From positions 8,062,001 to 8,126,000 of the forward strand of contig CM075990.1 in assembly GCA_038087875.1 (NCBI GenBank): a stretch of DNA of 64,000 nt, read 5' to 3'. Positions 15,629 through 56,982 of the stretch are shown piece by piece. How positions within the stretch are numbered: position 1 is the stretch's first letter; the number at the start of each line of letters is the position of its first letter. The notes beneath the pieces were generated by a model. It did not search any database. It was not told where the DNA came from and worked only from the letters and a program-made list of their open reading frames with translations. This DNA is from Malacoraja senta. Lineage: Eukaryota. A program made the position numbers and the translations under genes.

Positions 15629-16393
15629 TGTCCTCCCAGCTCACAATGATCTATTCTACATTTCCTTGATCTCCATTCCTTTTGTCCTGTTTTCACACCT
15701 TACACTTCCTTATGTATCTGCTTCCTTATCTATGTACTTCCCACGCCCCTGACATCAGTCTGAAGAAGGATCTTGACCCGAAATGTCACCCATTCCTTCT
15801 CTCCTGAGATGCTGCTTGTCTCGTTCAGTTACTCCTGCATTTTCCACCGTGTCAAGCTCTGGAAGCAATTTTGCATCGAGTATCTTGCTGGGACATTGGG
15901 GCTGTTGCAGCATCAGGTATTCTTAGTTAATTCTTGACATAGTGTGGGGGTGAAGTGGGTTGACCAGATGGCTTCTGTGAGAGTGGGGCTCTCAAGGGGA
16001 GGTAGAGAGGTTTCATGCACTCTTGCTGAAGATGGTTATATATACTTCAGCTTTGACTTTGGCAGTCACATGCTGGGTTCTGTGTTCTTAGAGCTGTCTC
16101 CTTGTTAGAGTTTTTGTGCCCATGACTATTCATGACTGGATATGGCAGAGTCTTCCGTGTTTTGACCTGATGCGTTACTTGTGGAACCTTCTTATCGAGT
16201 TCACACACAAGATTAGAAGTTGTTCAGCCAGAGCTGAACACACTGCACGGCATCTGCATACAATGGTGTCTGCCTTGTATCTTCTTGTGCTTCTTGTGCG
16301 TGGTGGTGGAAAGATTGGTGGAAACGGGGCCGCGACGTGAACGCTCTTTCCCGGACCCCTCTTGTGGAATGACTGAGCTCTCTTTTTATTTCT

Positions 16394-16821
16394 TTTTCTT
16401 TTTCTTTTCTTTTTTTAAATATTTTATTAAAAGTATTGTACATTGCCGTGATATCAAGCAAAAATAACATGATACATTTCTTGCACCACTTCTTATTATA
16501 AACTTTAAAAAGAAGAAAGATAGAGAGAATTAGCAAAGATAGTGAGTGAGTGAGTGAAAGAGTGGTCCAGGGAAACCCGTAGGGACCTAAACCACAAGAA
16601 AGAGTTAAACAGAAAACAAAAGAAAAAGAAAGAACAAAAAAAGTAAGATAAGATAAGACAAGATAAAAGGGATGTACCTACTTCATATCTTTACACACCC
16701 CTCACCAGTCCTGAAACCATCTATTTTCAATGTTTTGTTGCACCCTATGCTTGTAATAAGTCGATAAATGGAGACCAAATCTTTTGGAAATGGTCTGATT
16801 TGCCTGCTAAGAGGAATCTCA
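16394..16821 (-). mobile_element. L1-clade 3' fragment with 15-bp TSD
   Basis: TCTCTTTTTATTTCT at 16379-16393 and 16822-16836. The minus strand encodes MRFLLAGKSDHFQKIWSPFIDLLQ, homologous to IRLLLAGKPDHFHLTWSAFIELFQ near 35630-35700. Poly-T tail on the left. Confidence 0.8.
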
Positions 16822-17106
16822 TCTCTTTTTATTTCTGAGCTGCCCAAACCTATCCTGACTGCTTGTATCATGGCCTGGTATGGCAATTCCATTGCACAGG
16901 AATGCAAGAGGCTGCAGAGAATGGTGGACTGCAGAAGACGCTAAAGCGGATGGTATGAAGATGATTATCAAAAAGGAGCAGGATCTTGATCAGTTGGGCA
17001 ATTGGGCTGAGGAATGATTGAAGCAGTTCAATGCAGATGAAGGTGAAATGTTGTATTTTGGGAAGTTGGGACGGGACCTTTGCAGAAAAAGGCTATGCCC
17101 TGGGGA

Positions 17107-18445
17107 ATAGAAACATAGAAACATAGAAAATAGGTGCAGCAGTAGACCATTCGGCCCTTCGAGCCTGCACCGCCATTCAATATGATAATGGCTGATCATC
17201 CAACTCAGCATCCCGTACCTGCCTTCTCTCCATACCCCCTGATCCCTTTAGCCACAAGGGCCACATCTAACTCCCTCTTAAATATAGCCAATGAACTGGC
17301 CTCAACTACCCTCTGTGGCAGAGAGTTCCAGAGATTCACCACTCTCTGTGTGAAAAAGTTTTTTCTCATCTCGGTCTTAAAGGATTTCCCCCTTATCCTT
17401 AAGCTGTGACCCCTTGTTCTGGACTTCCCCAACATCGGGAACAATCTTCCTGCATCTAGCCTGTCCAACCCCATAAGAATTTTGTATGTTTCTATAATAT
17501 CCCCTCTCAATCTCCTAAATTCTAGCGAGTATAAGCCAAGTCTATCCAGTCTTTCTTCATATAAAAGTCCTGACATCCCAGGAATCAGTCTGGTGAACCT
17601 TCTCTGCACTCCCTCTATGGCTATAATGTCCTTCCTCAGATTTGGAGACCAAAACTGTATGCAATACTCCAGGTGTGGTCTCACCAAGACCCTGTACAAC
17701 TGCAGTAGAACCTCCCTGCTCCTATACTCAAATCCTTTTACTATGAAAGCTAACATACCATTCGCTTTCTTCACTGCCTGCTGCACCTGCATTCCTACTT
17801 TCAATGACTGGTGTACCATGACACCCAGGTCTCGCTGCATCTCCCCTTTTCCTAATCGGCCACCATTTAGATAATAGTCTGCTTTCCTGTTTTTGCCACC
17901 AAAGTGGATAACCTCACATTTATCCACATTATAGTGCATCTGCCAAACATTTGCCCACTCACCCAGCCTATCCAAGTCACCTTGCAGTCTCCCAGCATCC
18001 TCCTCACAGCTAACACTGCCCCCCAGCTTAGTGTCATCTGCAAACTTGGAGATGTTGCCTTCAATTCCCTCATCCAGTTCATTAATATAAATTGTAAATA
18101 GCTGGGGTCCCATCACTGAGCCTTGCGGTACCCCACTAGTCACTGCCTGCCATTGTGAAAAGGACCCGTTTACTCCTACTCTTTGCTTCCTGTTTGCCAG
18201 CCAGTTCTCTATCCACATCAATACTGAACCCCCAATACCATGTGCTTTAAGTTTGTATACTAATCTCTTATGTGGGACCTTGTCGAAAGCCTTCTGAAAG
18301 TCCAGATACAACACATCCACTGGTTCTCCCCTATCCACTCTACTAGTTACATCCTCGAAAAATTCTATAAGATTCGTTAGACATGATTTACCTTTCGTAA
18401 ATCCGTGCTGACTTTGTCCAATGATTTCACCACTTTCCAAATGTG
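17107..18445 (-). mobile_element. 5'-truncated CR1 LINE of the same young family, with an uninterrupted RT C-terminal frame
   Basis: ORF 17205..18500 (QHGFTKGKSCLTNL, GVPQGS, FADD) is nearly identical to 11690-13017, with the same tail. It interrupts an older + strand CR1 remnant (~16975-17106 and ~18446-18860). Confidence 0.95.
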
Positions 18446-19371
18446 GTAGAGCAGAGGGATCTAGGACCACATGTACATAGATTCTTGAAAATGGTGTCAC
18501 AGGTCGATAGGGTGGTCAGAAAGGCTTTTGGAACATTGACCTTCTTCAGTCAAAGCATTGAATACTGAAGTTGGGATGTGTATGAAGGAATGCTGGTTTA
18601 AACCAAAGATAGACATAAAATACTGGAGTAACTGAGTGGGACAGGAAGCGTCTCTGGAGAGAAGGAATGGGTGAGACCCTCCTTTGGGATGTTATGTTAC
18701 AGTTATACAAGACCTCGGTGAGGCCATATTTGGAGTATTTCAGTTTTGGTCATCCTGCGATAAGAAAGATGTTGTTCAGCCAGGAGAGAGCGCGGAGAAG
18801 ATTTATGTGGATATTGCCAGGACTTGAGCTAGAGGTAGAAGTTGAGCAGGCTAGATACGATTTCTTTGGTTGTTATTTGACAGATCTGTTAAAAGGTCTA
18901 CGAGGTCCTCCCCAGAATTTAATGAGGGGAAATTTATGGGATAGACAGGACTCTGTCTGCCTTCAGATTGGATTAAGACTAAGGAAGGGACACATTTGAT
19001 ATGTGGTAAATGTCTGAAGTAGAACTGGAAGGGTGCAGAATTATGCACAAATTTTTACTCACTTGAGTGGTCACAATTATTAGAAGATGATGACTGTGAC
19101 CAACCCAAGGACACGTGCTCCAAGACAGCAGCTGGTTAATTTCTGCCTCTTTCGCCTCATTGAATGAATGATACTTTATTGGCACATGTACCTAGTACTG
19201 TGAAAAGGTTTGTTTTGCGAACAACCTAGGCAGTACACAAGTGTCTCCACATGTTGGTGCTGGCAAAGTTACAGAAGTACCCAACTAGTCCTAGCCGCTG
19301 CCTGCCGCCACAGGTGGCATCGACCCCCCCCCCCCCCATTGCTCTCGCCGGTCCCTCCTCACTCTTGGTCC

Positions 19372-19620
19372 CTCCTCCCTCTCGGGTCTTTCCCCACCCC
19401 TCGCCCTCTCGGGTCTTTCCCCACCCCTCGCCCTCTCGGGTCTTTCCACCCCCCCTCACCCTCTCGGGTCTCCCCCCCCTCACCCTCTCGGGTCTCCCCC
19501 CCCCTTGCCCTCTCGGGTCTCTCCCCCCCCTCGCCCTCTCGGGTCTTTCCCCCCCCTCGCTCTCTCGGCTTTCCCCCCCTCCCTCTCGGGTCCCTCTTGG
19601 CTTCCCCCCTTCGCCCTCTC
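19372..19620. repeat. C-rich minisatellite, ~25-29-bp unit CCCCCCTCGCCCTCTCGGGTCTTT
   Basis: About 9 imperfect tandem units are directly visible. Confidence 0.9.
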
Positions 19621-22040
19621 CCTCAGCCTCCCCCATCGACGTCATATGGAGAAGATAATTCCCACTCGACCCGTGGGAATGTGACATGGGTCAAGTTTTC
19701 GAAAAAGCTTCAAGTCTTGTGGCCGTGTTTTGGAACCGAGTGCTGAGGAATCACCTTCAGAATTAGCACAGGCGCACGTTGTCAATTTGGAGGAATAGTG
19801 ACCTTGCAGAGACTCGGTGATGAATGGCCCTCAAAATACTGTTGGGAAGAAGGTACATTATGTCCAACTATACTAATGTTGAACAAGTCTTCAGCTCGCC
19901 GGCAGTAATACACATCGTTCATTGACTTTAATTGCATTAGTATAGTATCTTCAGATTACAATTGAACTTCCTCAAAGTCAGAAAATGACTTCATTGTCAT
20001 TAAATGTATGAACTCTGCCAGAATAGCTAATGCTCAGAGTTCATGTGTGGACACGTCCCACTTTGCTTTTGATTCCCCTCGATTTAATCCCAGGCATCAC
20101 ATGCACTGAACCGTCGGTGTATTGAAGCTGTGTGTGAAATGGATACCAGCTAGTACTTTGATACATATGGTACAGTGCAATGTGAATGCTGCTGCTTCCA
20201 GCAATCCCGGTTTACATGGAGTTTAGGAGGAAATAAACAGGAGTGGACTTATTTCACAATGTTGGTCACGCTAATAAAAAATAGTTTTCCATCTAAAAAT
20301 TGATATATCATCTTTAATGACCAGTGCAAATGGTTGCGGAAGTAAGCATCGTACATAAACGTCGAGGGTTAATAATCTGGCAAATCACTTTCGGTGTAGC
20401 CTCAACGGTAAATAAACCCAAATTAATTGGGCTATATTTTTGCCCCAAAAGCACACGTTTAAAACCTATTGCGTCTTCCCTTTACTGCGGAAGAAAAATG
20501 GCCAGGCACAATTCCATACTTCATGCAGAAAATTAAACATTCAAGTGAACAAATTAATCGTTGGAGAGAGACAATGAGAGAGTCTGTTAATTATTCTAGT
20601 CAGTGAGTTGAGGATGAAATGCTTTTATTTTCTCTCTTCGTGGTGTTTTAAAGTGAAGATTGTGTCAAAAGGAATGCCAGCCAGCTGGCCTGCTGAAGTC
20701 AACGGTTAAATGAATATTCCCATTAACTTTCTGATACTAGTGATGTTTTAAAAAGACATTTATCCACCGCTGATGCTGCAACACCCAAGAATTGTTTTTT
20801 GCAAAAATCTATGTGCATAAACTTCAGGCAAGACCAACAGATTAAAGACTGTACAGATGAGTATAAAACAGCCATACTTGAGGGAAATTGAACAGGAAGA
20901 CTGCCATTTTAGATCCTTTAATTGTTAATTGGCTTGATCATAGAATTATCATTCATAACACAAATAGGATTCTTGTCTGGGCCATGCTGAAGGGTTTGCC
21001 AGGATTTGTGAACAACGGACTATAGTTTAGAGGATATTCTTGGTGTATAGCCAGCGATTTCCCCTTGCAATGAGATTGCTGCTAAGAGCAGCTCGTACAC
21101 ATTTTTCCTCCACCCTTCTTGGCATTTTTATTTCGCTCTCCAGCGCATCAGTTTCAAATTCAAATTGAAGTCTTTGCAGGGTCAAAGAAAGACGAGGACG
21201 AGGAGCAGAGAGGAATGAAAATAATGGGGGAGCCGCAGTGATACCGACCTTCCTGTTGCCTGTGTTGGTTTCAAAACACAGTTTAGTTTCCTCTTGCTTT
21301 TAATCCTCTGCACTGAGGATTCAGTCACCATCTGGATTTTACAACTTTTCTCACCCAGTAATACTGTTGTGCAGAGCAGCTGACACTAATATCTCTGCTG
21401 CCTGATTTAGCAATGCAGGGCCCTTGGAAAACAGACATCATTCTGGGAGAGGCTTTGCTCTACATAGCTAATTTATAGACTCTATTCACCACCAGCCTTA
21501 ATAGTACTGTGAGTGGATGGTCAGTCATTTGACAGATGTGATATTCACCCATTGGTGTGTGTATACTAAATATCAAGCAAAATGAAATTTATTCGTTAGA
21601 TATAGCTCTAAGGGCTAACGGAATCAAGGGATAAGGGAAGAAAACAGGAAAGGGATACTGATTTTGGATGATTGCCATGATCATATTGAATGGCTGAGCT
21701 TGCTCGATGGGCCGAATGGCCTACGCCTGCACCTACTTTCGATGAAACTGTCCAAGACCTTTAATACAATGTCTCTTTTATAGGTGCTCTGGTCTTTTAT
21801 AGAACATTGAACACAGTACAACACAGGAACAGGCCTTTCGGCCCGCAATGTCTGTGGTAGCACAATGTCATGTTAAAGTAATCTCCTCTGCCTGCACATG
21901 ATCCATCTCATTCTCTGCATATCCATGTGCCTCTTAAATCTAAAGGCTTCTTAAATAACTATCGTATCTACCAAAGATAGACACAAAAAGCTGGAGTAAC
22001 TCAGCGGGACAGGCAGCATATCTGGCGAAAAGGAATGGGT

Positions 22041-22068
22041 GACGTTTCGGTTCAAGACCCTTCTTCAG
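22041..22068 (-). ncRNA. Minimal hammerhead ribozyme core (minus strand)
   Basis: Reverse complement reads CTGAAGA-A-GGGTC-TT-GAACC-GAAA-CGTC, with one stem II mismatch. Confidence 0.6.
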
Positions 22069-22130
22069 ACTGAGAGTCAGGCGAAAGCTGACCTTTATCA
22101 CAACACGTTGCAATGGGTTCAGGCACCCAC

Positions 22131-23940: not shown

Positions 23941-26161
23941 GGCAACTTCCTCCAGGTTTAACACCCAACTACAGGCACATGGCAATTTACAGTTGCCGGG
24001 CAAATGACCAAGCTGAATGTCTTTGGAAAGCTGGAGAAAACGTGTGTACCCAGAGGTAGGACTTTAGAGGGAGAGCGTGTGAAGTTTGCACATTTGACCT
24101 CTGGGTGCTCCTGTTTCCTCCCACCTTCCAAAGGTGTGCAGGTGGATCGGGTTGGAAACTATGGATTGCCTGAGTGTGTGTTGAGTCTTAAAATGTGGGA
24201 GGAGATGAAGATAATTGGGAGTGGGGTGAGGGGGTGGGGAGGTGAAAACAAAATGGTATTAAGATAGAATAAGTGTAAAAAGGGTGGTTGATAACTCAAT
24301 GGAGAGTGGGCCTGTTTTTGTTGCTGGATCTCTCAATGAAGCCCTGCAATGTCTCACAAAGACCCTGGTGAACGTCACCCTTCCAAGGCAACAAGGAACG
24401 GTCTGAAGAAGGGTTTCTGCCCAAAACGTTGCCTATTTCCTTCGCTCCATAGATGCTGCCGCACCCGCTGAGTTTCTCCAGCACTTTTGTCTACCTTTGA
24501 TTTTCCAGCATCTGCAGTTCCTTCTTAAACAAGGAACTGCAGATGCTGGTTTAAACTGAAGATAGACACAAAATGCTGGAGCAACTCAGCGGCACAGGCA
24601 GCATCTCTGGAGGGAAGGAACGGGTGACGTTTCGGGTCGAGGAAGGGTCTCGACCTGAAACCTCACCTGTTCCTTCTCTCCAGAGACGCTGCCTTTCCAG
24701 GGTAGTTGTCCAGAGACAACTTTCTTCTGAGTTGAGATCTGCAGTTTACCCTTTGCTTCAGTTTTGCTTTCTCGCCTGGTGCTCCACACCCCTCCAAAAA
24801 TGATAAATAATGTTCCCATGCTTGTACCTCCTTGTTCTCTGAGTGCCAGAATTAGCAATGTGGAGGCAGTTTGTTCCAGCACCAGGCCCATCTTTGTTGC
24901 AGTTACTGACAAGATCGCCTCCACCCTCCGATTATAGGGATTCTGATGATGATAGTGCAGCAAAGTTAAATGCTAAATGAGCTTCCTGTAATTGTTACGG
25001 CAACTTTATTCATGAGTTCGATGAATCACTTGAAAGCTGTATTAATTACTGACTGTGTGGAAGCGATTATTCATGGCTGCTCCGAGTCCTTTGGCACGAA
25101 GGAACGGATAAGTGGGGGGAATATTGTGGCAGCGCTCTGCAGAGAAGATTTTGAAACTAGAGTGTGTATTTTCAATTGGATTCGGGCATGAGCGGAGTAA
25201 GAAATTCAGCATCCATATTCCGCTGAAAGCTAAACCATTTAAATTGCGTTCAGACTGTGAATCTGTGTGGCTTAATGCCTCTTATTGGAATGAAAGGCTC
25301 ATTTCACATGTATCTGGCACTTTGCCAATCCAGGGCTTTACATATTTGACCTGCCAACCATTAATTCTGCTTATTTCGATCACACGTTGTTTTGCTGCAT
25401 GGATAATTCAAAAGGAAAGGGGTTTTGTATTATTTAACATTTTACTCGTCCTGGATCAGGCCATGAATGAAATGTTTATGTTAAGTAATAAGTAGTCTAA
25501 TCATTACTCACAGAGCAACTGACAACATAGAATATCTTCTTTGGAGTTCATTAAAATAGCTACATTCTTAAAAAAAGATGCAATCTCTCAAATGTTTTCC
25601 CACAATCATAAACTTACATTTCAGCTCAAACTGTACTGGAATGTTTCATCAGGAGCTCTGGTGTTGGAGATGGTTTCTGATGTGGTAAAGTTACTTATCA
25701 TTAAAATCATGACCATTAAAATCATTAATTAAAAAATAGTCATTAATGTTCACAGTGTAGAAGAACGGCAATCGTCCCATCAAGCCCATACTATCCAATA
25801 ATTGTGAGTCTTTGTGTTGCTCTTTCTTCAAGTTCTTGTTCAATATTTGTATACTATAGTTCTGTTAGTCATAGCTGCTGCTAAGATATGCGTTCCATTT
25901 ATACTTGGCCTTTCAGTGTTGTCTTTCAACTAACATGCCTTCTTGATCAATCGGGCATAAAGTTCTGGAAAGTTATCATAAGCTTAGAGTCGGTGCTTCC
26001 CAAAATATTAACCTCAAACTGATTTAGCTTACTAATTGTGTTATTATCTTTTTTTTTTCATTGGACACCTTCCAAGATTTTTTTGTTGTGCTCTGAATTA
26101 ATCTGCAAATCACAAGTTAATGTATCCTTTAATTAATCCTTTGATTGGCTGAGACTTCAAT

Positions 26162-26234: not shown

Positions 26235-26803
26235 GTGCTTTACCTGGGAAAATTGCATTTTCTAAAATTCATTCCCTCCATTTTTTAATGTCCATTTACT
26301 TGTAACTTCCCGACGCCGACACCTGGACCCTGTTCAAAGGTTGAAAACATTCATGCAAGAGTCCAAACACTGAGTCTTGGCAAGATAGACACAAAGTGCT
26401 GGAGTAACTCAGCGAGTCAAACAGCATCTTTGGAGAAAAAGGATGGGTGATGTTTTGGGCAGGGACCCTTCTTCAGTTCCGCGAGATCTAGCTGTTCTAG
26501 TGCATGAATAGCAAAAAGTCAGCAGATAGGTTCAGCAACTAGTTCAGAAGGTAGACATGTTCTTCTTTATTGACACTGAAGAAGGGCCCTGACCCAAAAC
26601 GTCACCTATCCTTTTTTCTCCAGAGATGCTGCCTGACTCACTGAGTAACTTCAGGTCCAAACCAGCATCAGCAGTTCTTTTCTACATAGTATGTTTTAGC
26701 ATTCAGCCTCGGCTAGACCTTAGCTAGAACCTAGTTCACTCAACACAAGAAAAAAACGATGCCATTGTTAAATGTGGCTTTCATGAACCCTGTGGCCATC
26801 TCT

Positions 26804-30082: not shown

Positions 30083-30877
30083 TCCTCCTTGAATACTTCA
30101 AATTTATGTCCCCATATTTGGTGGGATATGTTCTCCTCCCAGCAAACCACCCCAAGTTATGTAAACTCTGTTGCTATACGCAAGATTCGCCTGGTATGAA
30201 CAATAGAATGGTTCTCACTTCCAGAACAACCGGGCTTTAATAACCCTCTTTTCCCCAAAACTGTTGGTTACATGGCCAGCATGAGCTCTATCCTCACTGC
30301 GATCGGTCATCTCCTTGTACCTATGGTTCAACCCCGCATCCCTGCCTGCGTCATTGGCTAATGGAGGTCAAGATGGAGGTTACTGGGAAGGGGAAGGGGA
30401 TGGATAATTCAGATAACCCTTGCTTTCTCTCTCCATCCCCCATCCCCTTCCCAGTTCTCCCACTAGTCTTACTGTCTCTGCCCACATTCTATCTTTGTTC
30501 CGCCCCATCCCCTGACATCAGTCTGAAGAAAGGTCTCAACACGAAATTCGCCCATTCCTGCTCTCCAGAGATGCTGCCTCATCTGCTGAGTTATCCAGCA
30601 TTTTGTGTCTACCTTCGATTTAAACAGCATTTGCAGTTCCTTCTTGCAGACTTCTTAAGTCTGAAGAAGGGTTTCGACCCGAAAAGGTGTCTGAAGAAGG
30701 GTCTCAACCCAAAACGTCACCCATGTCTTCTATCCAGAGATGCCGCCTGTCCTGCTAAGTTAGTCCAGCATTTTGTGTCCATCATTGGTGTAAACCAGCA
30801 CCTGCAGTTCCTTCCTATGCACATGCTCTTTCTTCAGTATCTAAAAATATTTTCAAAAAAATCTGAAGAAAATTAGT

Positions 30878-30905
30878 CTGAAGAAGGGTCTTGACCCGAA
30901 ACGTC
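30878..30905 (+). ncRNA. Minimal type I hammerhead ribozyme core (Penelope pLTR-derived)
   Basis: CTGAAGA-A-GGGTC-TT-GACCC-GAAA-CGTC: conserved CUGANGA and GAAA boxes, paired stem II and a GUC cleavage triplet. Activity not shown. Confidence 0.7.
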
Positions 30906-32103
30906 ACCTATTCCTTTGCTCCATAGATGCTGCCTCACCCACTGAGTTTCTCCAGCATTTTTGTCTACCTCAAAAAAAATTAAAGACTTGTAAAAGCAAG
31001 TTGAATTGTTTAATGGTGCTCAAACAAGCATTTCACAGAATCAAGTTGTGTTATTCTAACAAAATAGAATTACTTTTAAAAATATGTTAATTTAGAGAAT
31101 GAAACCATTTATCCAATTAATTTTTCATTCAAAGGAACTGCAATATCTTTTATATTTGTGTTCCTAAAGACCAACAGCATTAGAAATAGGGGTGAGAGAA
31201 GGCCATTTGCACCATCAGCCACTGGCTTCACTTTCTATATCACAGCTAATCTTCCCTTCAACACCATATTCCAGCGTTAAGGTCATATCCCCTGATTCCG
31301 TTAATATCCTGAAATGAACCCATCTCAGTTGTGAATGTAGACAATGACTATGGCTCCACCAACCTCTATGGTAGAGGATTTTAACCATTCATCACCAGTT
31401 GAATGAAGAAAGTTACTTTCACTTTAATCCTACATGGCTATCTCTTATTTTGAAACCATGACCTCTAGTTCTTAATTCCTCATTCAGAAGAAACATTCTT
31501 CCTGTATCTAATTTTGTAGACCTTGGTGTAGCAATGTTACAACATTTTGAGATTAAAAAAATCAAGTCTGTAATTAATCCCATCAGATAAAGCATAAAAA
31601 GAAGTTTAATTTGATACCTAATTCACTTTCATATCTTCAGTATTAAAACAGTTATGGCCATTTTCATACTCGGAAATTAGCATCTTGTTCCCTATTGCTT
31701 TTCAATTGACTTAACACAAAAGCTGTGATGGAGGACAGTCAAAAGCCCATAACTTTCTTAAAAATTAAGAGAACTGAAAGAAATTTTCAGTTATTATAGA
31801 TTGAAGCATTCTGAAACAAATATGAAACAATCTTACTTAGACGACATGAAATTAAAGCATATAATTAGTTAGTTACCTAATTGTAGCTAATTACAAAATT
31901 CAATTACTAGATCTAAACATCTATCAATTTCTTAAGAATAGATTAACATTTTTAAAAAGCCTAAGTGTCCAAATAACATTCACACAAGAATTCATAATAT
32001 AACATAATTTTAAAATCTCATTGTCATGGATTTATAGGCCAAATGGAAGGAATTTAATGTTTAATACCTGTGAATTAATGGCCATTTAAATCATCTTGCG
32101 AGT

Positions 32104-35743: not shown

Positions 35744-36794
35744 GGGGGGATGATAGTTGAAGAGTTGGTATGTCCCATTTGCGTAATGCTCATAAAAACT
35801 ATTTGTTTCTCTCTTTTTCCTCTTTCTCTTTCTCTTTCTTTTCTAGGGTCTATTTCTTAACTCTTTTTCTTTTGTTTTTAATTTTGTTCTTATAGGGTCT
35901 TCGTCATTTTTTGTTGTCACATTTTCTACACTCTCACTTTTTCCTTCACTTTCTTCTTTCTTTCAATCTTTTCCTTTTACTAGTGTAAAAAACAAATGGA
36001 GTATATTAATTGTAAGAAGACATAAGTGACGAGTACTAATGTATGTGGTTGTAATGTAATGTACTTCTAATAAATAAAAAATTAAATTAAAAAAAAAAAT
36101 AATAATAATAATCATCTTGCGAGTGGGTTTTTCTGGAACGCGATCATTTGGAATGTTGCGGTTGCGGTGAATTTAAACCCGTATCGGCATGAAAAATACT
36201 GCCGGTTCGTACGGGGGGAAAAATCACTGTTTCGCAACTTAAATGTGAATTAAAGACATCTTAAGGAGCACTTTTACACATAAAATAAATGGCTTTCGTT
36301 TACCTGTCCCGTGCGTGAAATCCGTCCCTGTTGTCGGCGTTGACGGCTTTAGCTGATTTTAAAATTAGTCCAGCGCTGAACTTGTCGGGCAATTTTTAAA
36401 ACAAAATACACAGAACGCCCGTCGGAACGATTCTTCAGCAAAAGCTTGCACTCCAACGAAATATAATCCAGGACAAGGTAGGAGAAACCCACGTTTTAAC
36501 CCCGCGTTTTAAACCCCCCCCCTCAAAGGCGCCAAAATCGCGCACATGGCCAGTGGCAGAATTGCAGTGCCGCTGAAGGTAAGTATTGTAACATACCTAC
36601 TTGGTATGCTTCAATGAGATCTTCGCTTGGTCTTCTAAGATTGAACGTCTAGCCTAGTTGGTATCTCCTGATGTGATGGACTGCCCATCTAAGAAACCAA
36701 TCGATAAATCAACTACAATCAGTCTGAAGAATGGTCCTGGCCTGAAAGATTGCCTGTCCATTCGCTCCAGAGATGCTGCCTGACCCGCCAAGTT

Positions 36795-37131
36795 TACTTT
36801 GGGTTTTAGTTTGGTTCGCAGATCCAGTATGAAAACAGGCCCTTCAGTCCATTAAATCCATGCCGACCATCAATCATTCATTCACACTAATTAGATGTTA
36901 TCCCTCCTTTGCATCCACTCACCCATACGATGGGCAATTTTAGAGGCCAAATACCGTACAAACCCAGACATCATTGGGATGTGAAAGGAAATCGGAGCAG
37001 CTGAAGAAAACGCATGCGGTCGCAGGGAGGACGCGCAAACTCCCCACAGACAGCGTCTGAGGTCAGGATCGAACCCAGGTCTGTGGTACTGTGAGGCAAC
37101 AGCTCCACCCGCTGCAGCACTGTGCCGCCCC
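36795..37131 (-). mobile_element. HE1/V-SINE-type SINE (older)
   Basis: Same family, more diverged. Confidence 0.75.
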
Positions 37132-40971: not shown

Positions 40972-40984
40972 CATTCATTTCTTG

Positions 40985-41192
40985 AAGATAGACACAAAAA
41001 GCTGGTGTAACCCAGCGTGTCAGACAGCATCTCTGGAGAAAAGGAACACGTGACGTTTCCGGTCCGATGAAGGGTCTCGACCCGAAACGTCACCTATTCC
41101 TTCTCTCCAGAGATGCTGTCTGACCCGCTGAGTTACTCCTGCTTTTTGCGTCTATCTTTGTTTTAAACCAGCATCTGCAGTTCCTTCCTACA
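40985..41192. mobile_element. Inverted two-part Penelope pLTR cassette with 13-bp TSD
   Basis: A minus-strand partial copy is joined to a plus-strand copy. CATTCATTTCTTG occurs at 40972-40984 and 41193-41205. Confidence 0.85.
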
Positions 41193-43023
41193 CATTCATT
41201 TCTTGGCTTAGACAAGACTTTAGCCGGTGGGATTTGTATTTCCCATAACTTCAAGCAATGCATTCCAGATATGATGATCCACTGTAAGGAGCATCGTCTC
41301 GTCAACCCTGGATCTTTTGTCAATCACTTTAAATCTGTATCCTCCAGACCTGGACTGATGGGAACTGCTTTTCACCATTTAGCTTTCCCCAAGCCATTTA
41401 TGATCCTGCACACCTCTATTAAATCTCCTTTCAACCTTGTCTACCCTGAAAAGAACCTCCACAGCTTTTCCAATCCATCCATAATCTGAAAACCTTCATT
41501 CCAGGAACAGTTCCAGTGAACCTTCTCTGCACCCTCTCCAATGCTTTCATATCTTCATAAGGATTGGACAAGAAGAATTGAAAGCAGGAGTTGGCACCCA
41601 TCCCCTCGTGCTCCACTGTTCATCAAGATAATTGCTGATCTTTTACCTCAGCTCCATTTACCTGCACTATCTTCCTATTCCTTGATCCCTTCAATAGCCC
41701 GAATGAACCCTTTAAATGAATGCAGTCTAATAATTGACAGTCTTTTGGCACAGAAAATACCAAATGTTCACCATCCTCTAAGTAGAGGAAGGTGTAGGTT
41801 GATATGTCTGTGTTTTTTTCCTGCCTACTAAGGTAGAGTAAAAAGCTTTGTTTTGGAAACTAGCCAAGCAAATCGGATGATACTATACACACATACTATC
41901 AAGTCCCAAAACGCCACCAATTCCTTTTCTCCAGAGATGCTGTCTGACCCGCTGATTTGTTCCAGCTTTTTGTGCCCAGCTACAACCAAGCACTGAAATA
42001 CAATGTCCAGCAAATGGGTAGATACACAGGGTGCAGAATATAGATCTCAGCATTGTAGCGCATTAGTTCCAGAGACTAGGTCCAAAGTCCACAATGGGGG
42101 AGGGGTGAATTAGACAGTATCCTAACTTCAGGAAGGACCGATCAGACTGTGGAGAAGAAGGAATTACTGAGATGGGACAGGTCATTGATTATGTTAGCTG
42201 CTTTTCTGAGGTAGTGTGAAGTTAATGTGAGTAAATGGCAGGGAGTCTGGTCTGTGTGATGCACTGGGCTACATTCACAACTCTCTGCAATTTCTTGCGG
42301 TCTTGGGCAGGGCTGCTCCCAAACCAAGCTGCGATGCAACCCAACAGTATGCTTTCCCCCCCCCCATCTCAGCACTAAATGACCAACCCCTGGTTCTAGA
42401 CTCCTTAAACAGGGGTAATTGCATTCAGTCTATCAAGGTATTTCACATGTGTATATGGTGCTGTGCAATCACCTTTTATTCTGCTGAACTCTGAACCTCC
42501 CAACATTTTACCAAGGGGGAGGGGTGGAGGGGGGGGGGTGGGTAGGAAGCAAGTCAAAAGTGTTTAATTGGACGTAACCAGCCTAAGGAGGTGGAGGTTT
42601 GGGGCAAGAAGTAGCAAGCGACAGTTAAATACAGGTGAGGAGGGACAGATCGGCAGATAATAGGAAGGAGGTACTGCTCCAGTGCATCAAGCGGGCGGGC
42701 CGACCGGACTTCGGGCTTTGAATAATGGCGTCAATAATGGCGGCGCCCGCATGTGTAATATATGCATATGTGACAAATAAATCGCCATTGACTAGGGGGA
42801 GGGGAAATTGTGGCGAGGCTGAGAGATTGGGTCAGCTAGACATCTCCACCTTCAGCTCCTGTCAGCCATTGGGCATGGCAGTGGCTTAAAGAGTTGTGAA
42901 AAAGATGTTTATTCTACCAATCAACCTCTCCTCACCTGTGTCCATCCATCGCTTGCTCGCTCTTGCCCCTCTCCTCCTAACCTCTTTATACATTACTTCC
43001 CCTCTTTTTTCAGTCAAGATTTA

Positions 43024-43238: not shown

Positions 43239-46200
43239 TAAAGGGTGTCAAGCAGAAACATTGACCATCCATTTTTTTCCACAGATACTGCCTGGCCCAC
43301 TGAGTTCCGGCAGCTCTCCCCTGTTTTTTTTTTTTTTTTGCTACGATTCCAGCGTGGGCAGTCTCTCGTCTCTCCTGTTTGCCGTTGTTCTGCTTTTGCA
43401 CCAGAGCCAATTTCTTATCCATGCTCCACTAGTTCTCTTAGTCATGGACTTCAATTTTGCTAACCAGCCTTTTATCGAATGCCTTCCAAAAGATGTACAT
43501 TCATTATTACCATTATCAATCATCTTTGTTACCTCGTCAAAAAGCCAATCAATTTATTCAAACTAGATTTGCCTTTAATAGGTCTATGTTCCTTTCAGAA
43601 TTCAGTTCTCTCATGGTGACTATTCATTTTCTTGCTGATTGTTTGTAAAAGCTGCCCCCGTCCCTGCCCTCATATTCCATGCATTGATTATCCTTTTGAT
43701 CTCCAGTCAGCCTTACTTATTTTACTTACTCGTGCCTCAATATTTCAAAGCTGGTAGATGACTTTTATGTTCCCAGTTATCTTAACAAAGTAATTTCCCA
43801 TATCCACTCTTCCCCTTAGCAGATTAATTTCTCTCCACCATCCAATTCCCCGAATTTCTAAATTCTGCCTGGTTCTCAACCCCCTTTTTCCACCCCATCC
43901 TATTCCTTATAATATTTAATCATCCTGGAAACTCTGATCTCTGTCGCACCACCTTTCCCTCCTATGGGAACGGATTGGATGATGTTACCCCATCTCCATT
44001 TTGCAAAAGATATACAATGTTCAATTACAAATTTGACCATTTTCCATGTAACCCATCAGGGCCTTTCTCCATTAAGAAACTCTATCGAGTCATTCAGCAT
44101 GGAAACAGCCCAACTAGCCCACGCCGACTAACATGCCCCATCTACACTACTCCCTCCGACCTGCATTAGGCCCATATCCTCTAAACCTGTCCTATGCATG
44201 TACTTGTCTCAGTGTTTCTTAACCGCTGCAATAGTACCTGCCTCAACTATCTCGTTCCATACACCCACCACTCTTTTGTGAGAAGAAAATGACCCCTCGG
44301 GTACCTGTTAAATATTTCCCTCCTCACCTTACTATTTAGTTTATAGGCTCTAATTTAGGTTAGAAACATAGAAAATAGGTGCAGGAGGAGGCCCTTCGAG
44401 CCAGCACCGCCATTCATTGTGATCATGGCTGATCGTCCCCAATCAAATAGAAACATAGAAAATAGATGCAGGAGGAGGCCTTGTCTGAGGAAGGCCTTTA
44501 CTTGTATCAGTCTAATCAAGCCACGAGATGTCTGTGGAATTCTCTGCCTCAGAGGGAGGTGGAGGCCGTTTCTCTGGATACTTTCAAGAAAGCTAGATTG
44601 GGCTCTTAACGATAGCGGAGTCAGTGGATATGGGGAGAAGGCAGGAACGGGGTACTGATTGGGGATGATCAGCCATGATCGCATTGAATGGCGGTGCTGG
44701 CTCAAAGGGCCAAATGGCCTACTCCTGCACCTATTGTCTATTGTCTATTGTACAGAGGTTCATTTAATGATCGGGAGAAAAGAACGTACCTTCAGTGAAT
44801 AATGCTGATGTCAAAATCTCCTTGGAGAGACCAGTGGAATGTTTCTCACTCTTTGTACATGTTATCTTTCGGGAAAAAAAAAAAAAGAGGTGATGATGGT
44901 GCTGGTTAATGTTAGACAAGAGGGCGAGATGGTGGATAACTTTGCTTCAACCTCACGAGTATTCCCATTGCACCAAGAGTGCCACTCTTACCACTGTTCT
45001 CATACCAACCACCTTCAGGGCTGTCTAGTTGAATAATGCTGGCTATTAGTGGGGAAATAGTAAGGTAGTTTGCGCTGTGGAACTACACTGACTAAAAACC
45101 AGATGAAACTCTCTAAACAGATATTTCACATTGAACCTTGACAGACATTATTCTGGGGATGGTTTCATCCCCTCTGGGTGTATCAATGTCCAACTGCTGC
45201 ATCTCAATGTCTCCACCCTACCACCAGATTTGTTTCCACTCGGATATCTTTTAACCTATTTTGAAGATTCAATAGACTATAGGTGCAGGAGTAGGCCAAT
45301 CGGCCCTGCGAGTCAGCACCGCCATTCATTGTGATCATGACTGATTCATAATAATGAAATTATTAAATTGGATGTGCATGTCATTGACCTCTGAACATAA
45401 TTATTTTAACCCCATTTTACATCTCTCCTGTGGGTAGTAAGAACACTGGAACTCAATCCACACATTAGAATGTTTAACACAGGATGCTTTGTGGGATTGT
45501 CTGGAAAAAAAGGAAGCATCTCTCTCTCAATATTCTGGTGTGGTATTTTTACATTTTCAGTGTCTTGTTGAATGAGCTATGTTGGGGAATACTGCCCCTC
45601 TTTTGTGAATTAATGCACTGTGTGAGACAACTAGATTGAGTTAGCTGGAGCTAGGAATCAAAGACAGAACAGACACAGAATAGGGAGAGTGGCTGGGACG
45701 GGGAGATTGTGGATTGTGAATAAGGGAATTAATGCTTTTAGAAACATAGAAAATAGGTGCAGGAGGAGGCCCTTTGAGCCAGCACTGCCATTCATTGATC
45801 GCCCCATCAACAAGATATCGTTTCTCTTGTAGATGGCAAAGGCATGAGAGGGGTGTAACCTAGTATGGAAATACCAAATATTAGAAGGCAGAGCTTTAAG
45901 GTGAGAGGGACAAAGTTTAAAGGAGATGTGCGCAGCAAGTTTATTTTTCCATGGAAAGTGCCTGGAATGCACTGCCAGGGGTGGTGGTTGAGGCGTTTAA
46001 GAGACTTTTGGGTCGGCACATGGATATGCAGGGAACGTGCAGGCAGTCGTCATGTTCATTAGACATTATGGGCCGAAGGGCCTGTTCCTGTGCTGTATTC
46101 TTCCATGTTCCACAGGTGTTCAGATCTGGATGTTGACGGCTGAGTTGCCACCAGATTATTGGAATGGAGTAATTGGTTTTCCATAAAGATATAAACACTG

Positions 46201-49770: not shown

Positions 49771-49802
<32 letters not shown>

Positions 49803-52204
49803 TATATATAGCTCTTGGGGCTAACAGAATCAAAGGAAATGGGGAGAAAGCAGGAACAGGGTACTGATTGTGAAACTACTTCCAGAAGATATTTGATAAG
49901 ATGCCACATCAATGCCTATTGCACAAAATAAAAGCTTGTAGCATAGGAGGTAGGATATGGGTGCAAATGGAAGGATGCCGACAGGAAAGTGTGAGCATAA
50001 ATGAATTGTTTTCTAGTTAGTATCATGTATGATGCGGTGTGCACAGTCATTGGTGCTGAGGCCCGAGTCGAGCCCGCAGTCTCCTGATTATGTTACTTGG
50101 GCGTATTGTAAGTAATCTCCAGACAAGTGAAACAGGTTGAAGATAGACACAAAATGCTGGAGGAACTCAACGGGTCGAGCAGCATCTCTGGAGAAAAGAA
50201 GCATCTCTGGAGAATAGGTGCTGTTTCAAGTTGGAATCCTTCTCCAGGCTGAAAGATGGAAGGATTCCAACCTGAATCGGGAGGGAAATGAGTCGAGAAA
50301 AGACCAGATAAATCGGGGCTGGCAACAGATGACCTCGGGACGGGTGGAATCTATAACGGCCCATTGTTGGCTGAGGAGAATGTGTTAATGAGAGGGATAC
50401 AAGGTTGCAAACAGTGGAACTAGCAGGACAATTGGGTGACATAAGTTGGAACATGACTGCGTTGCCAACTTTCACCAAGGAGTTATCAGGATAAAACTGG
50501 AGCTTGTACTCAACATGTTTCTGTGCTTTAATTTAATTGATGGCTTGTCTTCCAGGGAGAAACCTATAGAAGCAGCATGGAACTCGGGAACATAAATCTT
50601 AAGGATAAACACACATATATAGTTCAGATACATCAAGTCAAATCACGGAGAGAAGCTTTAACTGAGTGAGTGATGTGGCTTTACCTGTGTTTTTCTGTTC
50701 AGTAGATTAACAGTCACTCATCTAGGTATACTCGAGTATGTCTAACTAGAGTGGTACTGAAAAATGATGGGTCGTGTTGTTATAAAAGTACATGGATATT
50801 TTAACAGGCCCAGTCCTAGCTGAAATTAAATTGTTTTTAAGTATAGCGTAGGATGGGGAATATTAGGGCATTCATCTCAAAAGACTATGACAACTAGTCA
50901 ATGGGTTGGCTACAAATTGTAACTGAGTACAACTTTTCTGTGGTTCAATGCTTAAATGTTCTGAGGTCTAAATATATTCACCCAACCAATGCCCAGACAG
51001 TATCACTGGATAGAAGGAATGGGTGACTTTTTGGGTCAAGATCCTTCTTCAGACTGAGAGTCAGTGGAGAGGGAGACACAGAGATAAGGAAGGGTAAGGT
51101 GTGAAAACGAGGTGGTGAGTGTATGGAACAAGCTGCCAGAGGAGGTAGTTGAGGCAGGTACTATTGCAACGTTTAAGAAACATTTAGACAGGTACATGGA
51201 TAGGACAAGCTTGGAGGAATATGGACCAAACGCAGGCAGGTAGGACTTGTGTAGCTGGGACATGTTGGCCAGTGTGGACAAGTTGGGCCGAAGGGCCTGT
51301 TTCCACACTGTATCACTCTCTGACTCTATCAAAAGAGATGCAGATCAAGGAAGATGTAGAATATTGTTAGCTGGGAGAAGGTGACTTCCTTTTGTTGTCC
51401 AGCTAGATCTCAATTGTTTATCCCTTGAGTGGAAAGCTTGATGATATGGGGACACAAGTGACTGTGGATGCTGGAATCTCAAGGACCAAACAAATTGCTG
51501 GCAGTCCTGCCGAGATACTCCAGCACTTTGTATTTTGCTGAAGCTTGATGATCAGGTTCTTCAAAGAAGGTTTAAGGATGTTCCTGCACAGGTAATGTAA
51601 TTGCAGTACCCTATGTCCCTGTGTACCTAAAAGAGCATTAATTAGATCATCTGATATTCCAGTTGATATAGTCAGAGCACATAGCACAATGAAATGTAAC
51701 AACAAAGCATCTTCAACAGGTTTTATTTGGCAAATGCCAAAATAAAATACTCATTGCAGTTAATTTATTCTAATTGAACACGCACTGCAAAGGAATAATA
51801 CTACCTCCCCATGCAATGAAAACAAAGGCAAGATGCCTGGGGCAGGATACTGTTCTTCTTAAGCTGTCTAGGTTTGCTTGTGCCAGGAATGTATCTTTAG
51901 AGGGTCAGAGGATCTGTGGGTATAAATGTCCCCGTGGATCAGTGCTTGGATCAATAGATTTATCTTTTTTATCGTACTTTCTTCATGTATCTTTGCAAAT
52001 ATCTATCCCAAATCCAAGTAAGTCCATGGAATATGTTCACATGCATTTACACCGCAGCTGGAGGGTTTAAGACCAATGAAAGATTGGGTTCCTATTCAAA
52101 CTGTTTACCTGCTGACTGGGCTGCCTGTCACTGCCTTGGTTCCATAGTCTTCCTGCAGAGTTGTCTCTCAGAGAACAGAGACCACAACGAATGTGTGCAG
52201 CAGA

Positions 52205-52494: not shown

Positions 52495-53423
52495 AGAGCA
52501 GGGTCCATTCATCTGTGCACTGTGATTTACATTCAAAATCATCAATCTGAAAAGTTAACTGCTCTTTTTCCTCCACAGATGCTACCTGACCTGTTGAGTG
52601 TTACCAGTGTTTTTCGGTTATATTTCAGGTTCCCAACATGTGCAGTATTTCACTTTGTGGACTAGTGTAATGTTAGAGTCGGTAAAGCATTTCTAAACCA
52701 GGTGTAGCATGACAATAAAACACACACAGTGCTGGAGTAACTTGACTGGTCAGGTAGCAAAACGGAGAACACGGATAAATGACGCTTTGGGTCGGGACCC
52801 TTCCTCACTCTGAAGGTGGAAGTGGGGAGAAAGATGGAGGGGAGGAGGGGAGGAGGGCAGGACAAAGTCTGGCAAGTGATAGGTGGATACAGATGCAGGG
52901 GGGGGGATACAGAGTAATACAAACAGCACTTTGTCTTTTTTTTGTAAACCAGCATCTGCAGTTCCTTGTGGCATTACAACAAATTAATGCTCATTCAGCA
53001 TCAGATCTCCATGGAGTGTCACTGTGATTTTCTCAGGTATTCAACTCCTAATTGTTGCCATGTTAGTATTGAATGGAAATTATTCTTCTCTTAACTAAAC
53101 TGCTTTAAATAAAGCGTGACTGATTAAAAGGGTCTCTTCCTTCAGGGATAAAAAGAACAAAGAGACCAAAGGTAGGAAAAAATAACAATGGATGAAAAAT
53201 TGGTTTAAAAAATATCCTTTTTCTTGACTTCTCCTGCCAGCAAAGTTATTGAAGATCTGAGTGATCTCTGGTAGCTCTCAACAGTTGTGCACTTTCCATG
53301 ACGACTACTTGAGGAAGTAGGTGAGAAGATTATTGTGGGCTCCAATTTTCTCCTTGGCTGCCCTTCCAGCAAAGATTATCTGGTCGCAGGTACTCTGAAT
53401 TCCATTTGTCTGTAGCAGCTCTT

Positions 53424-54705: not shown

Positions 54706-55901
54706 TATGATGCACATGAATCCAACTTAGATGGAGTCTGTGGTATAGCTTTAAATTGGCCAAGTCCTTGGAAGAACCCAACCAATTATTCTGCATCTGC
54801 CCAACAACCAGTATTCGAGACACGAGAGATTGCATATGATAGTTTCTCCAGGAAAACAAACAAACTGATGTTTAGAGGGATATGGGCCAAACGCAGGCAG
54901 GTGGGACTAGTATAGATGGGGCATGTTGGCCAGTGTGGGCAAATTGTGCCGATGGGTCTGTTCCACCCTGTAAAAGACTCTGACTTACAGCGTGGAAGTC
55001 AACAGACCAGGCAGCATCTGTGGAGGCAGAATGTTGGCCAGTGTTAGTTCTCTCTGTTTACCTCGTGGGGCTTTTAGACGAATCGTGAGCGGCTGTCCCA
55101 AGCCACGAGTTCCGTTGTGAGTTATCTGTTCCTCTTTGGTACATAAACGGTCTCCCACATTCCTAAACCAGTGGAGACAAGACCAGTGGGTAATGTTCGT
55201 TGGCGAAGGCTTATTATAGTCACAAAATGGCAAACTCCGGGTTCAGCTTGGCTCGGTTGTATTACTTTCTGCACTGTTTGCCAGTTGAACGGTCGTGAAC
55301 GAGAGTGCTTTTTCTAATTATCCACCTGGCGTCCATCGCGACCTTCTGCCCTTGGAGATAGAAGGAACTGCAGATGCAGATGCTGGAATCTTGAGCAAAA
55401 CGCAAAGTGCTGGAGGAACTCCACGAGCCAGGCAGACTCTGCGGAGGAGGCGGAGGAGGCGGAGAGGCGATGTTTCGTATCGCGCCCGGACCCTTCTTCA
55501 CACCTTAACCGCACCGAAACCGTTGCAATGCGCTCCCTACTTGTCCTCAAGGTGTAATCTGTCGGGCCTCGCGACCCTTTCCTTGGCGAGGATAATCCTT
55601 CCCCCTCTGGTACTGTCTACGGCAGGTCTCTAACCTCCCCCCCCCCGTCCCCTCAGCTGAATCATGTCTTAAAGGCCATTCTGGACATCTTCCCATTGCA
55701 ATCCTAGGTCGACGATCCCACTGACCCCATGCTTACCTCCTCTCTACATCCCTCCCCCTTCCAAGTTCCCCGGCCAGTCTGACTGTCTCCGACTACATTT
55801 TATGATCTGTTCTACATTTCCCTCGATGATCATCCCTTTGTCCTGTTTTCACACCTGACACTTCCTTATCTGTGTATCCCCCCCTCTCCCCTGACATCAG
55901 T

Positions 55902-55929
55902 CTGAAGAAAGGTCTCGACCCGAAACGTC
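55902..55929 (+). ncRNA. Minimal hammerhead ribozyme core inside a longer Penelope pLTR copy (~55735-55990)
   Basis: CTGAAGA-A-AGGTC-TC-GACCC-GAAA-CGTC, with one stem II mismatch. Confidence 0.6.
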
Positions 55930-56797
55930 ACCCATTCCTTCTCTCCGGAGATGCTGCCTGTCCGCTGAGTTACTCCAGCATTTTGTGACTTCTCCCAACA
56001 CCCAGTGAATCTCAGAACGCCACCATCTCCCTGATCCACTCTGTTCCCATATGTTCAGTTACCTTCCTGAAATTTCTCTTTGAAATTTCTCTCTCTCTCT
56101 CTGAAAGCATAAACAATAATGGGTCTCTGCGAGCGCCAGACTTATCTCCCGGCTCGACGCTCCATTAACCAGGAACGACCTTCCCCTCTTTGACGTTATT
56201 AATGGTGAAGTTTCCATGACATTCCCCGATGCCCCGACGGCAGTGAAGCTTTTGGGTCGACAACGTCTGATCCGCGGCAGACTTCCAAAGCCGCCATCAG
56301 CGAGCTGCCCGAGTAACACAGACGCGCAAATGTCCAGACGTGTGCATCTCAACCTTTTTATTTGCAAACATTTACCAGCACAAAACAAACCAGACAGCGG
56401 GGCTTTTTGGTACCAAGTTTGTAGCCCACACCTCGAGAGCTAGCGGAGCCCCAGATACCCGGACTCGCGGCAACACCCGGGTCTTCCTGTGTTCAGAGAG
56501 AGAGAGAGATTTAGAAATCTAAGACCCTGTTGATCTGTGGTATGGCATCAGTCATCCTGTCTCTGTCTTTCTCTGTGTCTGACTGTCTCTCTCGAAGATA
56601 GACACACAATGCTGGAGTAACTCAGCGGGACAGGCAGCATCTCTGGAGAGAAGGAATGGGTGACGTTTCGGGTGGGTCTCGAATTCCTTTTGTCCAGAGA
56701 CGCTGCCGGTCCCGCTGAGTTACTCCAGCTTTTTGTGTCTATCTTCGGTTTAAACCAGCATCTGCAGTTCTTTCCTACACATGACTCTCTCTCTCTT

Positions 56798-56847
<50 letters not shown>

Positions 56848-56954
56848 ATATATAGTGTCTTCACCAATGCTCGCTTTCTTCCCCCCCCCACCCCGCACAG
56901 ACAACACACACACACACATACATGTATATTACACACATATACAACCACATCAGT

Positions 56955-56982
56955 CTGAAGAAGGGTCTGGACCCGAAACGTC
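56955..56982 (+). ncRNA. Minimal hammerhead ribozyme core (Penelope pLTR-derived)
   Basis: CTGAAGA-A-GGGTC-TG-GACCC-GAAA-CGTC, core intact. Confidence 0.7.

Follow-up and report, generated by a model that had tools for sequence, protein, structure and literature searches.

The short repeats described here are likely to be 5'-truncated pseudo-LTR copies from an autonomous Neptune-type Penelope-like element (PLE). They make up about 5% of the window, i.e. the whole 64-kb stretch of DNA that was analysed (3.4-3.5 kb in total, a sum that includes one misaligned UTR match). They carry a minimal hammerhead ribozyme motif, and most copies begin in or just before it.

The Repeat Family

A 31-nt hammerhead pattern has nine matches with at most three mismatches in the 64-kb window, as against none in 100 shuffles. 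A profile of the short unit finds 32 matches, four of them weak 3' fragments, spread from 8494 to 57056 at a density of about one copy per 2 kb; on the reversed window, no profile match reaches E<=0.01 (best E=0.62). The motif does recur more than a dozen times on both strands, as the earlier note had claimed; all coordinates listed there fall in or beside profile matches, and the family is larger than that list. Six copies had been singled out as the best, and this holds for two of them, those at 30878 and 56955, which match the pattern exactly. The core at 15760 has C15.2>U and a stem II mismatch, those at 22068 (minus strand) and 55902 have one stem II mismatch each, and that at 41064 has U4>C and is placed on a fold-back junction. 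Metagenome contigs do not contain the exact pattern, and viral contigs lack a looser version of it; in metagenomes, the looser pattern leads to families of other animals, none of which resembles the window family outside the core.

The individual copies are as follows (supporting evidence in brackets; TSD, target-site duplication; C3 and C17 denote core positions).

8494..8603, plus strand: solo copy that begins with the ACGU palindrome and has a tail and an 11-bp TSD (profile, ends)
18578..18684, minus strand: solo copy, 3' core deleted internally, with tail and 9-bp TSD (profile, ends)
21965..22087, minus strand: complete core (C3 at 22068) with one stem II mismatch, without tail (pattern, profile)
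24398..24530, plus strand: copy with G12>A and a 10-bp TSD, its insertion point at the tail of a second family member (alignment, ends)
24522..24713, unstranded: two copies folded back head to head and joined within core/stem II (arms 82% alike)
26381..26688, unstranded: head-to-head pair with a 99-nt spacer, G12>A in both arms, tail on the plus arm only (arms 86% alike)
30405..30970, plus strand: four head-to-tail pieces of unequal length with cores at 30523, 30661, 30691 and 30878, the first piece with a short UTR and only the 30878 core intact (profile)
36715..36816, plus strand: degenerate solo copy (profile)
37415..37507, plus strand: degenerate solo copy with three core changes (profile)
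40975..41195, unstranded: fold-back unit inserted as a single event, stem II junction, tail on the plus arm only, 13-bp TSD (arms 89% alike)
41903..41981, plus strand: copy beginning within stem II (profile)
43241..43315, plus strand: old degenerate copy (profile)
50137..50252, minus strand: degenerate copy (profile)
50993..51110, minus strand: copy with about 58 nt of UTR and G12>A (UTR alignment)
52545..52814: two old degenerate copies, 52545-52647 on the plus and 52715-52814 on the minus strand (profile)
55359..55505, minus strand: old degenerate copy with tail (profile)
55726..55990, plus strand: bridging copy with full UTR and hammerhead (C3 at 55902), G10.1>A, predicted cleavage between 55929 and 55930 (UTR alignment)
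56588..56783, unstranded: fold-back pair, stem II junction, plus arm without 3' core, tail on the plus arm only (arms 91% alike)
56948..57045, plus strand: solo copy in which the minimal hammerhead is intact, with C3 at 56955 and C17 at 56982 (exact pattern)

Origin from a Penelope-like Element

The link to a PLE is provided by a locus near the start of the window, where an endonuclease (EN) remnant is followed by a UTR that continues into a family copy.

11336..11593, plus strand: C-terminal remnant of the GIY-YIG endonuclease of a PLE (Pfam, protein identity)
11594..11679, plus strand: first part of the 3' UTR, directly after the EN stop codon (80% identical to 55726-55811, 79% to 30414-30499)
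11686..15645, minus strand: CR1-type LINE that interrupts the PLE UTR and does not belong to the family (RT, AP endonuclease and GDSL esterase frames)
15646..15843, plus strand: second part of the UTR, hammerhead (C3 at 15760) and downstream segment (80% identical to 55802-55984)

The remnant falls below the Pfam cut-off (E=0.006), and is 72% identical to Leucoraja erinacea proteins and 63-64% to RT-EN proteins of rays. It is the sole PLE-protein match in the window; no PLE RT, full-length element or upstream pseudo-LTR is seen in the 64 kb. The LINE has an 8-nt repeat tail at 11686, and its open frame runs on to 15644, a stretch that we take to be the N-terminus of CR1 ORF1; a protein atlas search with a short LINE peptide lent this reading no support and was uninformative. 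Two uninterrupted copies (55726-55990 and 30405-30650) bridge the UTR halves, which may nevertheless stem from different UTR variants. The hammerhead had been placed in the UTR downstream of the GIY-YIG remnant; this tie to a PLE stands, but direct adjacency does not, as the LINE of about 3.96 kb lies between them and the motif follows 4 kb on, at 15760. UTR continuity and the Leucoraja identity also support the proposed Penelope origin and elasmobranch host.

The best full-length relatives (including P0003, P0004 and P0007) combine a telomerase-like RT with a C-x4-C-x2-C linker and a GIY-YIG domain; such a linker with GIY-YIG is a mark of Neptune/Nematis elements (PMC8557442). Among 121 metagenome loci, 28 have both the core and an EN C-terminus, and in 27 of these 28 the EN C-terminus is followed on its own strand by the core, at a distance of 37-165 nt. 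Judged from these sequences, the repeat is the pseudo-LTR (3' end) of a PLE, probably of Neptune type, whose host is a cartilaginous fish and most likely a skate.

The Hammerhead Motif and Its Decay

The majority sequence contains the CUGANGA ... GAAA N..NUH core. All core nucleotides are present in seven of the 17 core-spanning copies and the fully intact motif in two. Four catalytic positions are invariant, namely A13 and A14 (both 25/25), G5 (18/18) and G8 (20/20); catalytic G12 has decayed to A in 8 of 25 copies. An extra A lies between positions 9 and 10.1 in 19 of 20 copies, and the 10.1-11.1 pair is GC in 12 and GU in one of 15. Helix III is absent; positions 15.1-16.1 form a palindrome, ACGU in the majority, with a predicted self-duplex of -3.1 kcal/mol. 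The aligned copies confirm what had been described, i.e. a minimal type I hammerhead without helix III, with an extra A after A9 and a palindrome pairable only between two copies. Stem I, given as 2-3 bp, is very short indeed, and is read here as 2 bp. The GGGTC-NN-GACCC hairpin stands as a stem, but its 2-nt loop does not: since a 2-nt hairpin loop cannot close, stem II is better read, with folding, as 4 bp and a 4-nt loop.

Three checks suggested in the earlier note gave differing results. At non-CpG sites, the core is more conserved than the flanks (197/208 or 94.7% versus 1354/1553 or 87.2%; P=0.0009). Helix covariation does not appear among the window's 15 aligned cores (371 of 500 shuffles score as high); in related metagenome families, helix I positions 1-3 are paired in 64-68 of 75 (0 of 1000 shuffles), a figure with relatedness uncontrolled. 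No Rfam hammerhead family matches the window at E<=10, nor the segment 56930-57060, an outcome that the missing helix III would probably explain.

These features are those of the minimal type I hammerheads in metazoan PLE pseudo-LTRs described by Cervera and de la Pena in 2014 (PMC4209133). The common traits comprise the CUGANGAH core, one nucleotide more between 9 and 10.1, a G10.1-C11.1 pair, a missing helix III and a palindromic 15-16, as well as mostly single, scattered motifs and opposite-strand pairs; the fugu, cichlid, Xenopus and lamprey rows have the same core and CGUC end. The extra A, missing helix III and palindrome, at first thought peculiar, are thus part of the consensus published there. 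The 4-5 bp of helix II and the 2 bp of helix I seen here differ in lying at the short end of its range. Neither the main-text parts nor supplement file 2 of that paper mention a shark or skate host.

Transcripts, Folding and Activity

In one raw polyA RNA run, a type of library that would miss circles, both strands of the family are transcribed, together giving about 0.1% of reads; read ends do not pile up at the cleavage site, and depth peaks across it. Folding predicts that the active dimer is unstable, at -5.7 kcal/mol compared with -11 kcal/mol for two monomers and -26.4 kcal/mol for a stem II duplex. In five of six longer folded contexts of two intact copies, G8-A9.1 is paired with probabilities of 0.69-0.99, and a downstream pyrimidine tract is predicted to mask the core by pairing with it.

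In the favoured account, any cleavage would be a property of master elements, whose ribozyme is probably a weak one that acts as an ACGU-paired dimer with assistance from the element's protein. Selection on these master elements would maintain the minimal hammerhead; the scattered copies would be dead and subject to neutral decay. The hammerhead could instead be a catalytically dead relic even in the master elements, retained as a signal for protein binding or priming. This is possible but unlikely; it bears on activity alone and does not conflict with an identity as PLE pseudo-LTRs. The 2-bp stem I and the predicted masking of the core would fit a relic, as do anole Poseidon, where insertion is unaffected by ribozyme mutants (PMC11167929), and the lack of cleavage in eight of nine Xenopus dimers; the specific conservation of A13, A14, G5 and G8 speaks against it, as does the stem I covariation in related families, subject to the same reservation on relatedness.

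Copy Ends and Insertion

Relative to the ribozyme, 23 of the 32 5' ends fall in -11..+27, in or just before the motif, at a rate of 0.029 per nt compared with 0.003 and 0.007 on the two sides. This anchoring of most 5' ends to the ribozyme is a new detail. Five of the 32 copies extend into the UTR and share the downstream segment of the others, one of them reaching the EN gene. The 3' ends cluster at +60..76 (14/32) and +98..105 (11/32), which leaves an optional tail of about 34 nt, found on one arm only in three of four fold-backs. TSDs of at least 9 bp flank 5 of 23 units, as against 1.1% of random pairs. Copies neither begin nor finish at the hammerhead cleavage site.

By analogy with anole Poseidon, the RT-endonuclease would nick DNA and begin to copy its own uncleaved RNA. 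There would be two start sites for this, lying about 70 and 104 nt 3' of the hammerhead cleavage site, and the choice between them would account for the optional tail. Reverse transcription would mostly stop within the ribozyme or slightly 5' of it, which would limit most insertions to 70-135 nt; two truncated products would occasionally join head to head. As to why 5' ends cluster, an RNA 5' end near the core is the foremost candidate, if a tentative one; RT arrest at the structure is a weaker possibility and a separate short template an unlikely one. Simple self-priming at stem II is rejected as the origin of the fold-backs because their junctions hold additional core sequence.

At 55896-55901, four runs show a roughly 50-fold step in read depth and loose ends with unlike flanks. 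A pyrimidine tract followed by CAG precedes the core, and a splice acceptor is not favoured as the source of the 5' boundary, because the loose ends are spread out and define no single junction.

The truncation account can be combined with a discrete element: the fold of the ribozyme, or else a transcript 5' end set directly ahead of it, would fix the PLE RT stop and would also have spawned a non-autonomous element of about 100-135 nt, including stem II-joined fold-back dimers, that fills several per cent of skate DNA and is read through on both strands, its core kept inactive by the downstream pyrimidine tract for as long as the protein of the element is not bound. We regard this joint reading as improbable.

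It is also rather improbable that the repeats are simply a SINE-like, pseudo-LTR-derived element of about 100-135 nt, bounded by the 5' edge of the ribozyme, with its own short RNA and PLE protein supplied in trans. The 5'-end cluster and the depth step with its loose ends agree with such an element, as do the individual TSDs of solo copies. Related families run further upstream more often (at most 10 nt upstream in 14 of 87, compared with 12 of 17 copies here), a comparison that is suggestive only, since ungapped extension, the age of the copies and repeated loci all confound it. However, the 5' ends scatter over some 40 nt rather than sharing a site, the five UTR-entering copies keep the same downstream sequence, no promoter is identified, and the core is broken in most copies. 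The sharp 5' boundary taken alone is equally compatible with a discrete short element on present data; 5'-truncated pseudo-LTRs of an autonomous element are the simpler explanation of the short copies.

Relation to Known Systems

Neptune-clade PLEs share with this family the C-terminal GIY-YIG, a zinc-finger-like linker (here in the relatives) and 5' truncation (PMC8557442, PMC3846280). Their known insertion anatomy includes inverted truncated copies, a 30-40-bp tail at one end, 8-13-bp TSDs, solo pseudo-LTRs and inverted-junction palindromes (PMC3846280), all with counterparts here. The present family differs in its very dense pseudo-LTR-only copies with 5' ends at the ribozyme, and in that no full element is seen in the window. 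Anole Poseidon PAc likewise has two RT start sites that account for a tail, and its RNA-seq reads do not end where the ribozyme cuts; its template is uncleaved RNA and its ribozyme protein-assisted (PMC11167929). It belongs to another PLE clade, however, and its ribozyme, whose activity was tested, overlaps the ORF start.

Retrozymes are defined by tandem arrays with complete ribozymes in at least two consecutive units. The label 'retrozyme-like', previously applied to the family, does not suit dispersed single insertions with their own TSDs and no tandem array in the window. Non-LTR retrozymes (PMC7229834; bioRxiv 10.64898/2026.07.22.740005) are also non-coding, with a type I hammerhead and pseudo-LTR kinship, and differ in having tandem arrays, a canonical hammerhead and ends at the cleavage site. 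That tandem units self-cleave to monomers, circularise and reinsert is very improbable: the class is pseudo-LTR-derived, with one chondrichthyan reported (bioRxiv 10.64898/2026.07.22.740005), and arrays could sit beyond the window, but the four same-strand pieces clustered at 30405-30970 are spaced 138, 30 and 187 nt apart with one intact core in four, TRF detects no array over any copy in the window, neither copy ends nor RNA read ends mark the cleavage site, and the motif is minimal.

Implications

The role of PLE hammerheads has been described as unclear (PMC8557442). The present family leaves knowledge of the ribozyme class itself unchanged, as motifs of this kind are already described from many animals; with it, cartilaginous fish join the hosts for which such a motif is explicitly given. 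If the joint reading is true and the window typical, extrapolation gives possibly 10^5-10^6 hammerhead-derived copies. The family allows the internal-initiation model to be tested in a second PLE clade, and its very high copy number, copies uncleaved at the site and ribozyme-mapped 5' ends make it a large natural data set for the points at which reverse transcription starts and stops.

A repeat family with a known type of ribozyme

The repeats are real, very abundant and mostly dead pseudo-LTR copies of a Penelope-like element (PLE), probably of Neptune type, and carry a known minimal hammerhead. Profile searches give 30–32 matches, covering ~5% of the window, and none in the reversed window. 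The repeat unit comprises a hammerhead-like core and 60–105 nt downstream; in 5/32 copies, upstream UTR (between the stop codon of EN, the GIY-YIG endonuclease, and the hammerhead) is also present. The motif occurs as the earlier note described it, with nine matches at ≤3 mismatches versus none in 100 shuffles; a pattern search of the window finds exact copies at 30878 and 56955.

Its traits are exactly those that define the metazoan PLE minimal hammerhead in the available text of Cervera and de la Peña 2014 (PMC4209133): an extra nucleotide between 9 and 10.1, G10.1–C11.1, a palindrome and no helix III. According to the same text, these ribozymes are mostly solitary, opposite-strand pairs occur, the monomer is inactive and dimer activity is low; its supplement file 2 contains no shark or skate term. 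Dimeric PLE hammerheads are attributed to Lunse et al. 2017 in PMC6765202.

A looser core pattern matches at least 121 metagenome loci of other animals. Stem I positions 1–3 are paired in 64–68 of the 75 distinct matches listed (0/1000 shuffles; kinship uncontrolled), and the core lies 37–165 nt downstream of the EN C-terminus, on the same strand, in 27 of 28 EN-bearing loci among the matches listed. Loci L055, L066, L076, L079, L098, L111 and L118 each hold two opposite-strand minimal hammerheads, and several also contain PLE endonuclease sequence.

Origin and neighbouring elements

A GIY-YIG C-terminus is encoded at 11336–11593 (Pfam E=0.006, below cut-off); no PLE reverse transcriptase (RT) is left anywhere in the window. 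The remnant is closest to Leucoraja erinacea proteins (72%), followed by Hypanus, Mobula and Chiloscyllium (18 matches among 49 candidates). Longer relatives combine RT, a C-x4-C-x2-C linker and GIY-YIG; this linker, described as a Neptune/Nematis mark (PMC8557442, in part), rather than a tree, suggests Neptune as the clade. The UTR after the EN stop codon is broken by a LINE (11686–15645) and continues from 15646, so that no hammerhead lies straight after the remnant. Because UTR and ribozyme are in one piece in copies 55726–55990 and 30405–30650, the connection to a PLE is sound but indirect.

Other elements in the window
11686–15645 (−), LINE, presumably CR1-type from its esterase–endonuclease–RT layout; frames kept, frameshift-broken
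17107–18515 (−), LINE copy, presumably also CR1-type; its 3′ part is ~95% like that of the former, and the two have a tail of 8-nt repeats
32086–35743 (−), endonuclease–RT frames of 296 and 510 aa, which we take to be L1/Tx1-like
34520–35422 (+), further 300-aa frame
53416–54482 (+), decayed RT of another non-LTR clade, not PLE (Pfam RVT_1)
49707–49875, LINE 3′ end folded back on a (TA)n centre, with 93% complementarity between the arms; it causes spurious Rfam miRNA matches
16326–16359 (−), matched weakly, and over part of its length, by Rfam's HDV-like CPEB3 ribozyme model (25 bits, E=0.02, below gathering)
10276, 29795, 39348, 46377, 52205 and further sites, a tRNA-like SINE family present in abundance, presumably resembling known shark/ray SINEs, with associated LINE-tail repeats (families D9–D12, D20)

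Conservation, folding and expression of the ribozyme

As the earlier note predicted, the core is better conserved than its flanks (197/208 versus 1354/1553 downstream at non-CpG, non-dimorphic sites, P=0.0009; 214/233 versus 1481/1749 at all sites, P=0.003), with P values from copies that are not independent and profile edges that may inflate the 5′ core. Evidence against function of the window copies comes from G12→A in 8/25 copies, an intact motif in only 2/17 core-spanning copies, and two checks that the earlier note had proposed: covariation is absent among 15 aligned window cores, and an Rfam search does not pick up the motif. The active dimer is computed at −5.7 kcal/mol, versus −11 for two monomers; most foldings that include natural flanks predict pairing between the 5′ core and a downstream pyrimidine tract.

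In a polyA sample (~6% of one run, possibly from a related species), 10,030 of 7,335,232 records match 55690–56050, and 14–15% of reads carry G12>A. Core reads are about equal in both orientations; those over the UTR (55729–55806) favour one by ~3:1. At no position do many of these molecules start or end, which is weak evidence against ribozyme activity, since neither circles nor minor cleavage would show up in a polyA library. Two large runs each yield ~95,000–98,000 matching contigs, a figure that is not to be read as a copy number.

Insertion ends

Between 11 nt 5′ of the core and the predicted cleavage site lie 23/32 5′ ends, a density of 0.029 per nt versus 0.0028 on the downstream side and 0.0067 on the upstream side (P=9e-8 in a binomial test, for a zone picked after inspection, hand-entered positions and a search in which very short copies are hard to detect). 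PolyA-run depth agrees, rising from ~170 at 55872–84 to ~8570 at 55924–36, partly because UTR variants fail the 82% filter; loose ends with unlike sequence occur at 55896–55901 in all four runs. Directly 5′ of the ribozyme, a pyrimidine tract ending in CAG (55882–55901) resembles a splice acceptor; in Drosophila Penelope, an intron is described as terminating at helix I (PMC4209133, in part).

The 3′ ends fall at +60..76 from the cleavage site in 14/32 copies, at +98..105 in 11/32 and elsewhere in seven. Four head-to-head pairs have arms 82–91% alike; in three of these the fold-back junction lies within the core or stem II, and in three the tail, an optional ~34-nt 3′ extension, is restricted to one arm. 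Duplications of ≥9 bp surround 5/23 units (one low-complexity) versus 1.1% of random pairs; one of the five, of 13 bp, encloses a whole fold-back. Tails, fold-backs and target-site duplications match PLE structures in the available parts of PMC3846280 and PMC8557442. For anole Poseidon, the accessible text of PMC11167929 explains the tail by two internal RT start sites, gives uncleaved RNA as the template and a ribozyme that requires protein, and reports RNA-seq ends to be absent at the cleavage site.

Place among known families

Retrozymes are described as tandem repeats in which consecutive units carry complete ribozymes (PMC7229834; bioRxiv 10.64898/2026.07.22.740005, both in part). None of 53 TRF rows for the window covers a family copy, and the earlier term ‘retrozyme-like’ is not supported there. 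The second source reports retrozymes in one chondrichthyan, and its supplements may list this family. The literature covered, on hammerheads and ribozymes in cartilaginous fish and on pseudo-LTR truncation, does not describe it; expansion of PLEs in whale shark introns is mentioned in part of bioRxiv 10.1101/443036. The family adds a member to the known class of PLEs with minimal hammerheads; its only feature that merits further attention is how the 5′ ends map to the ribozyme.
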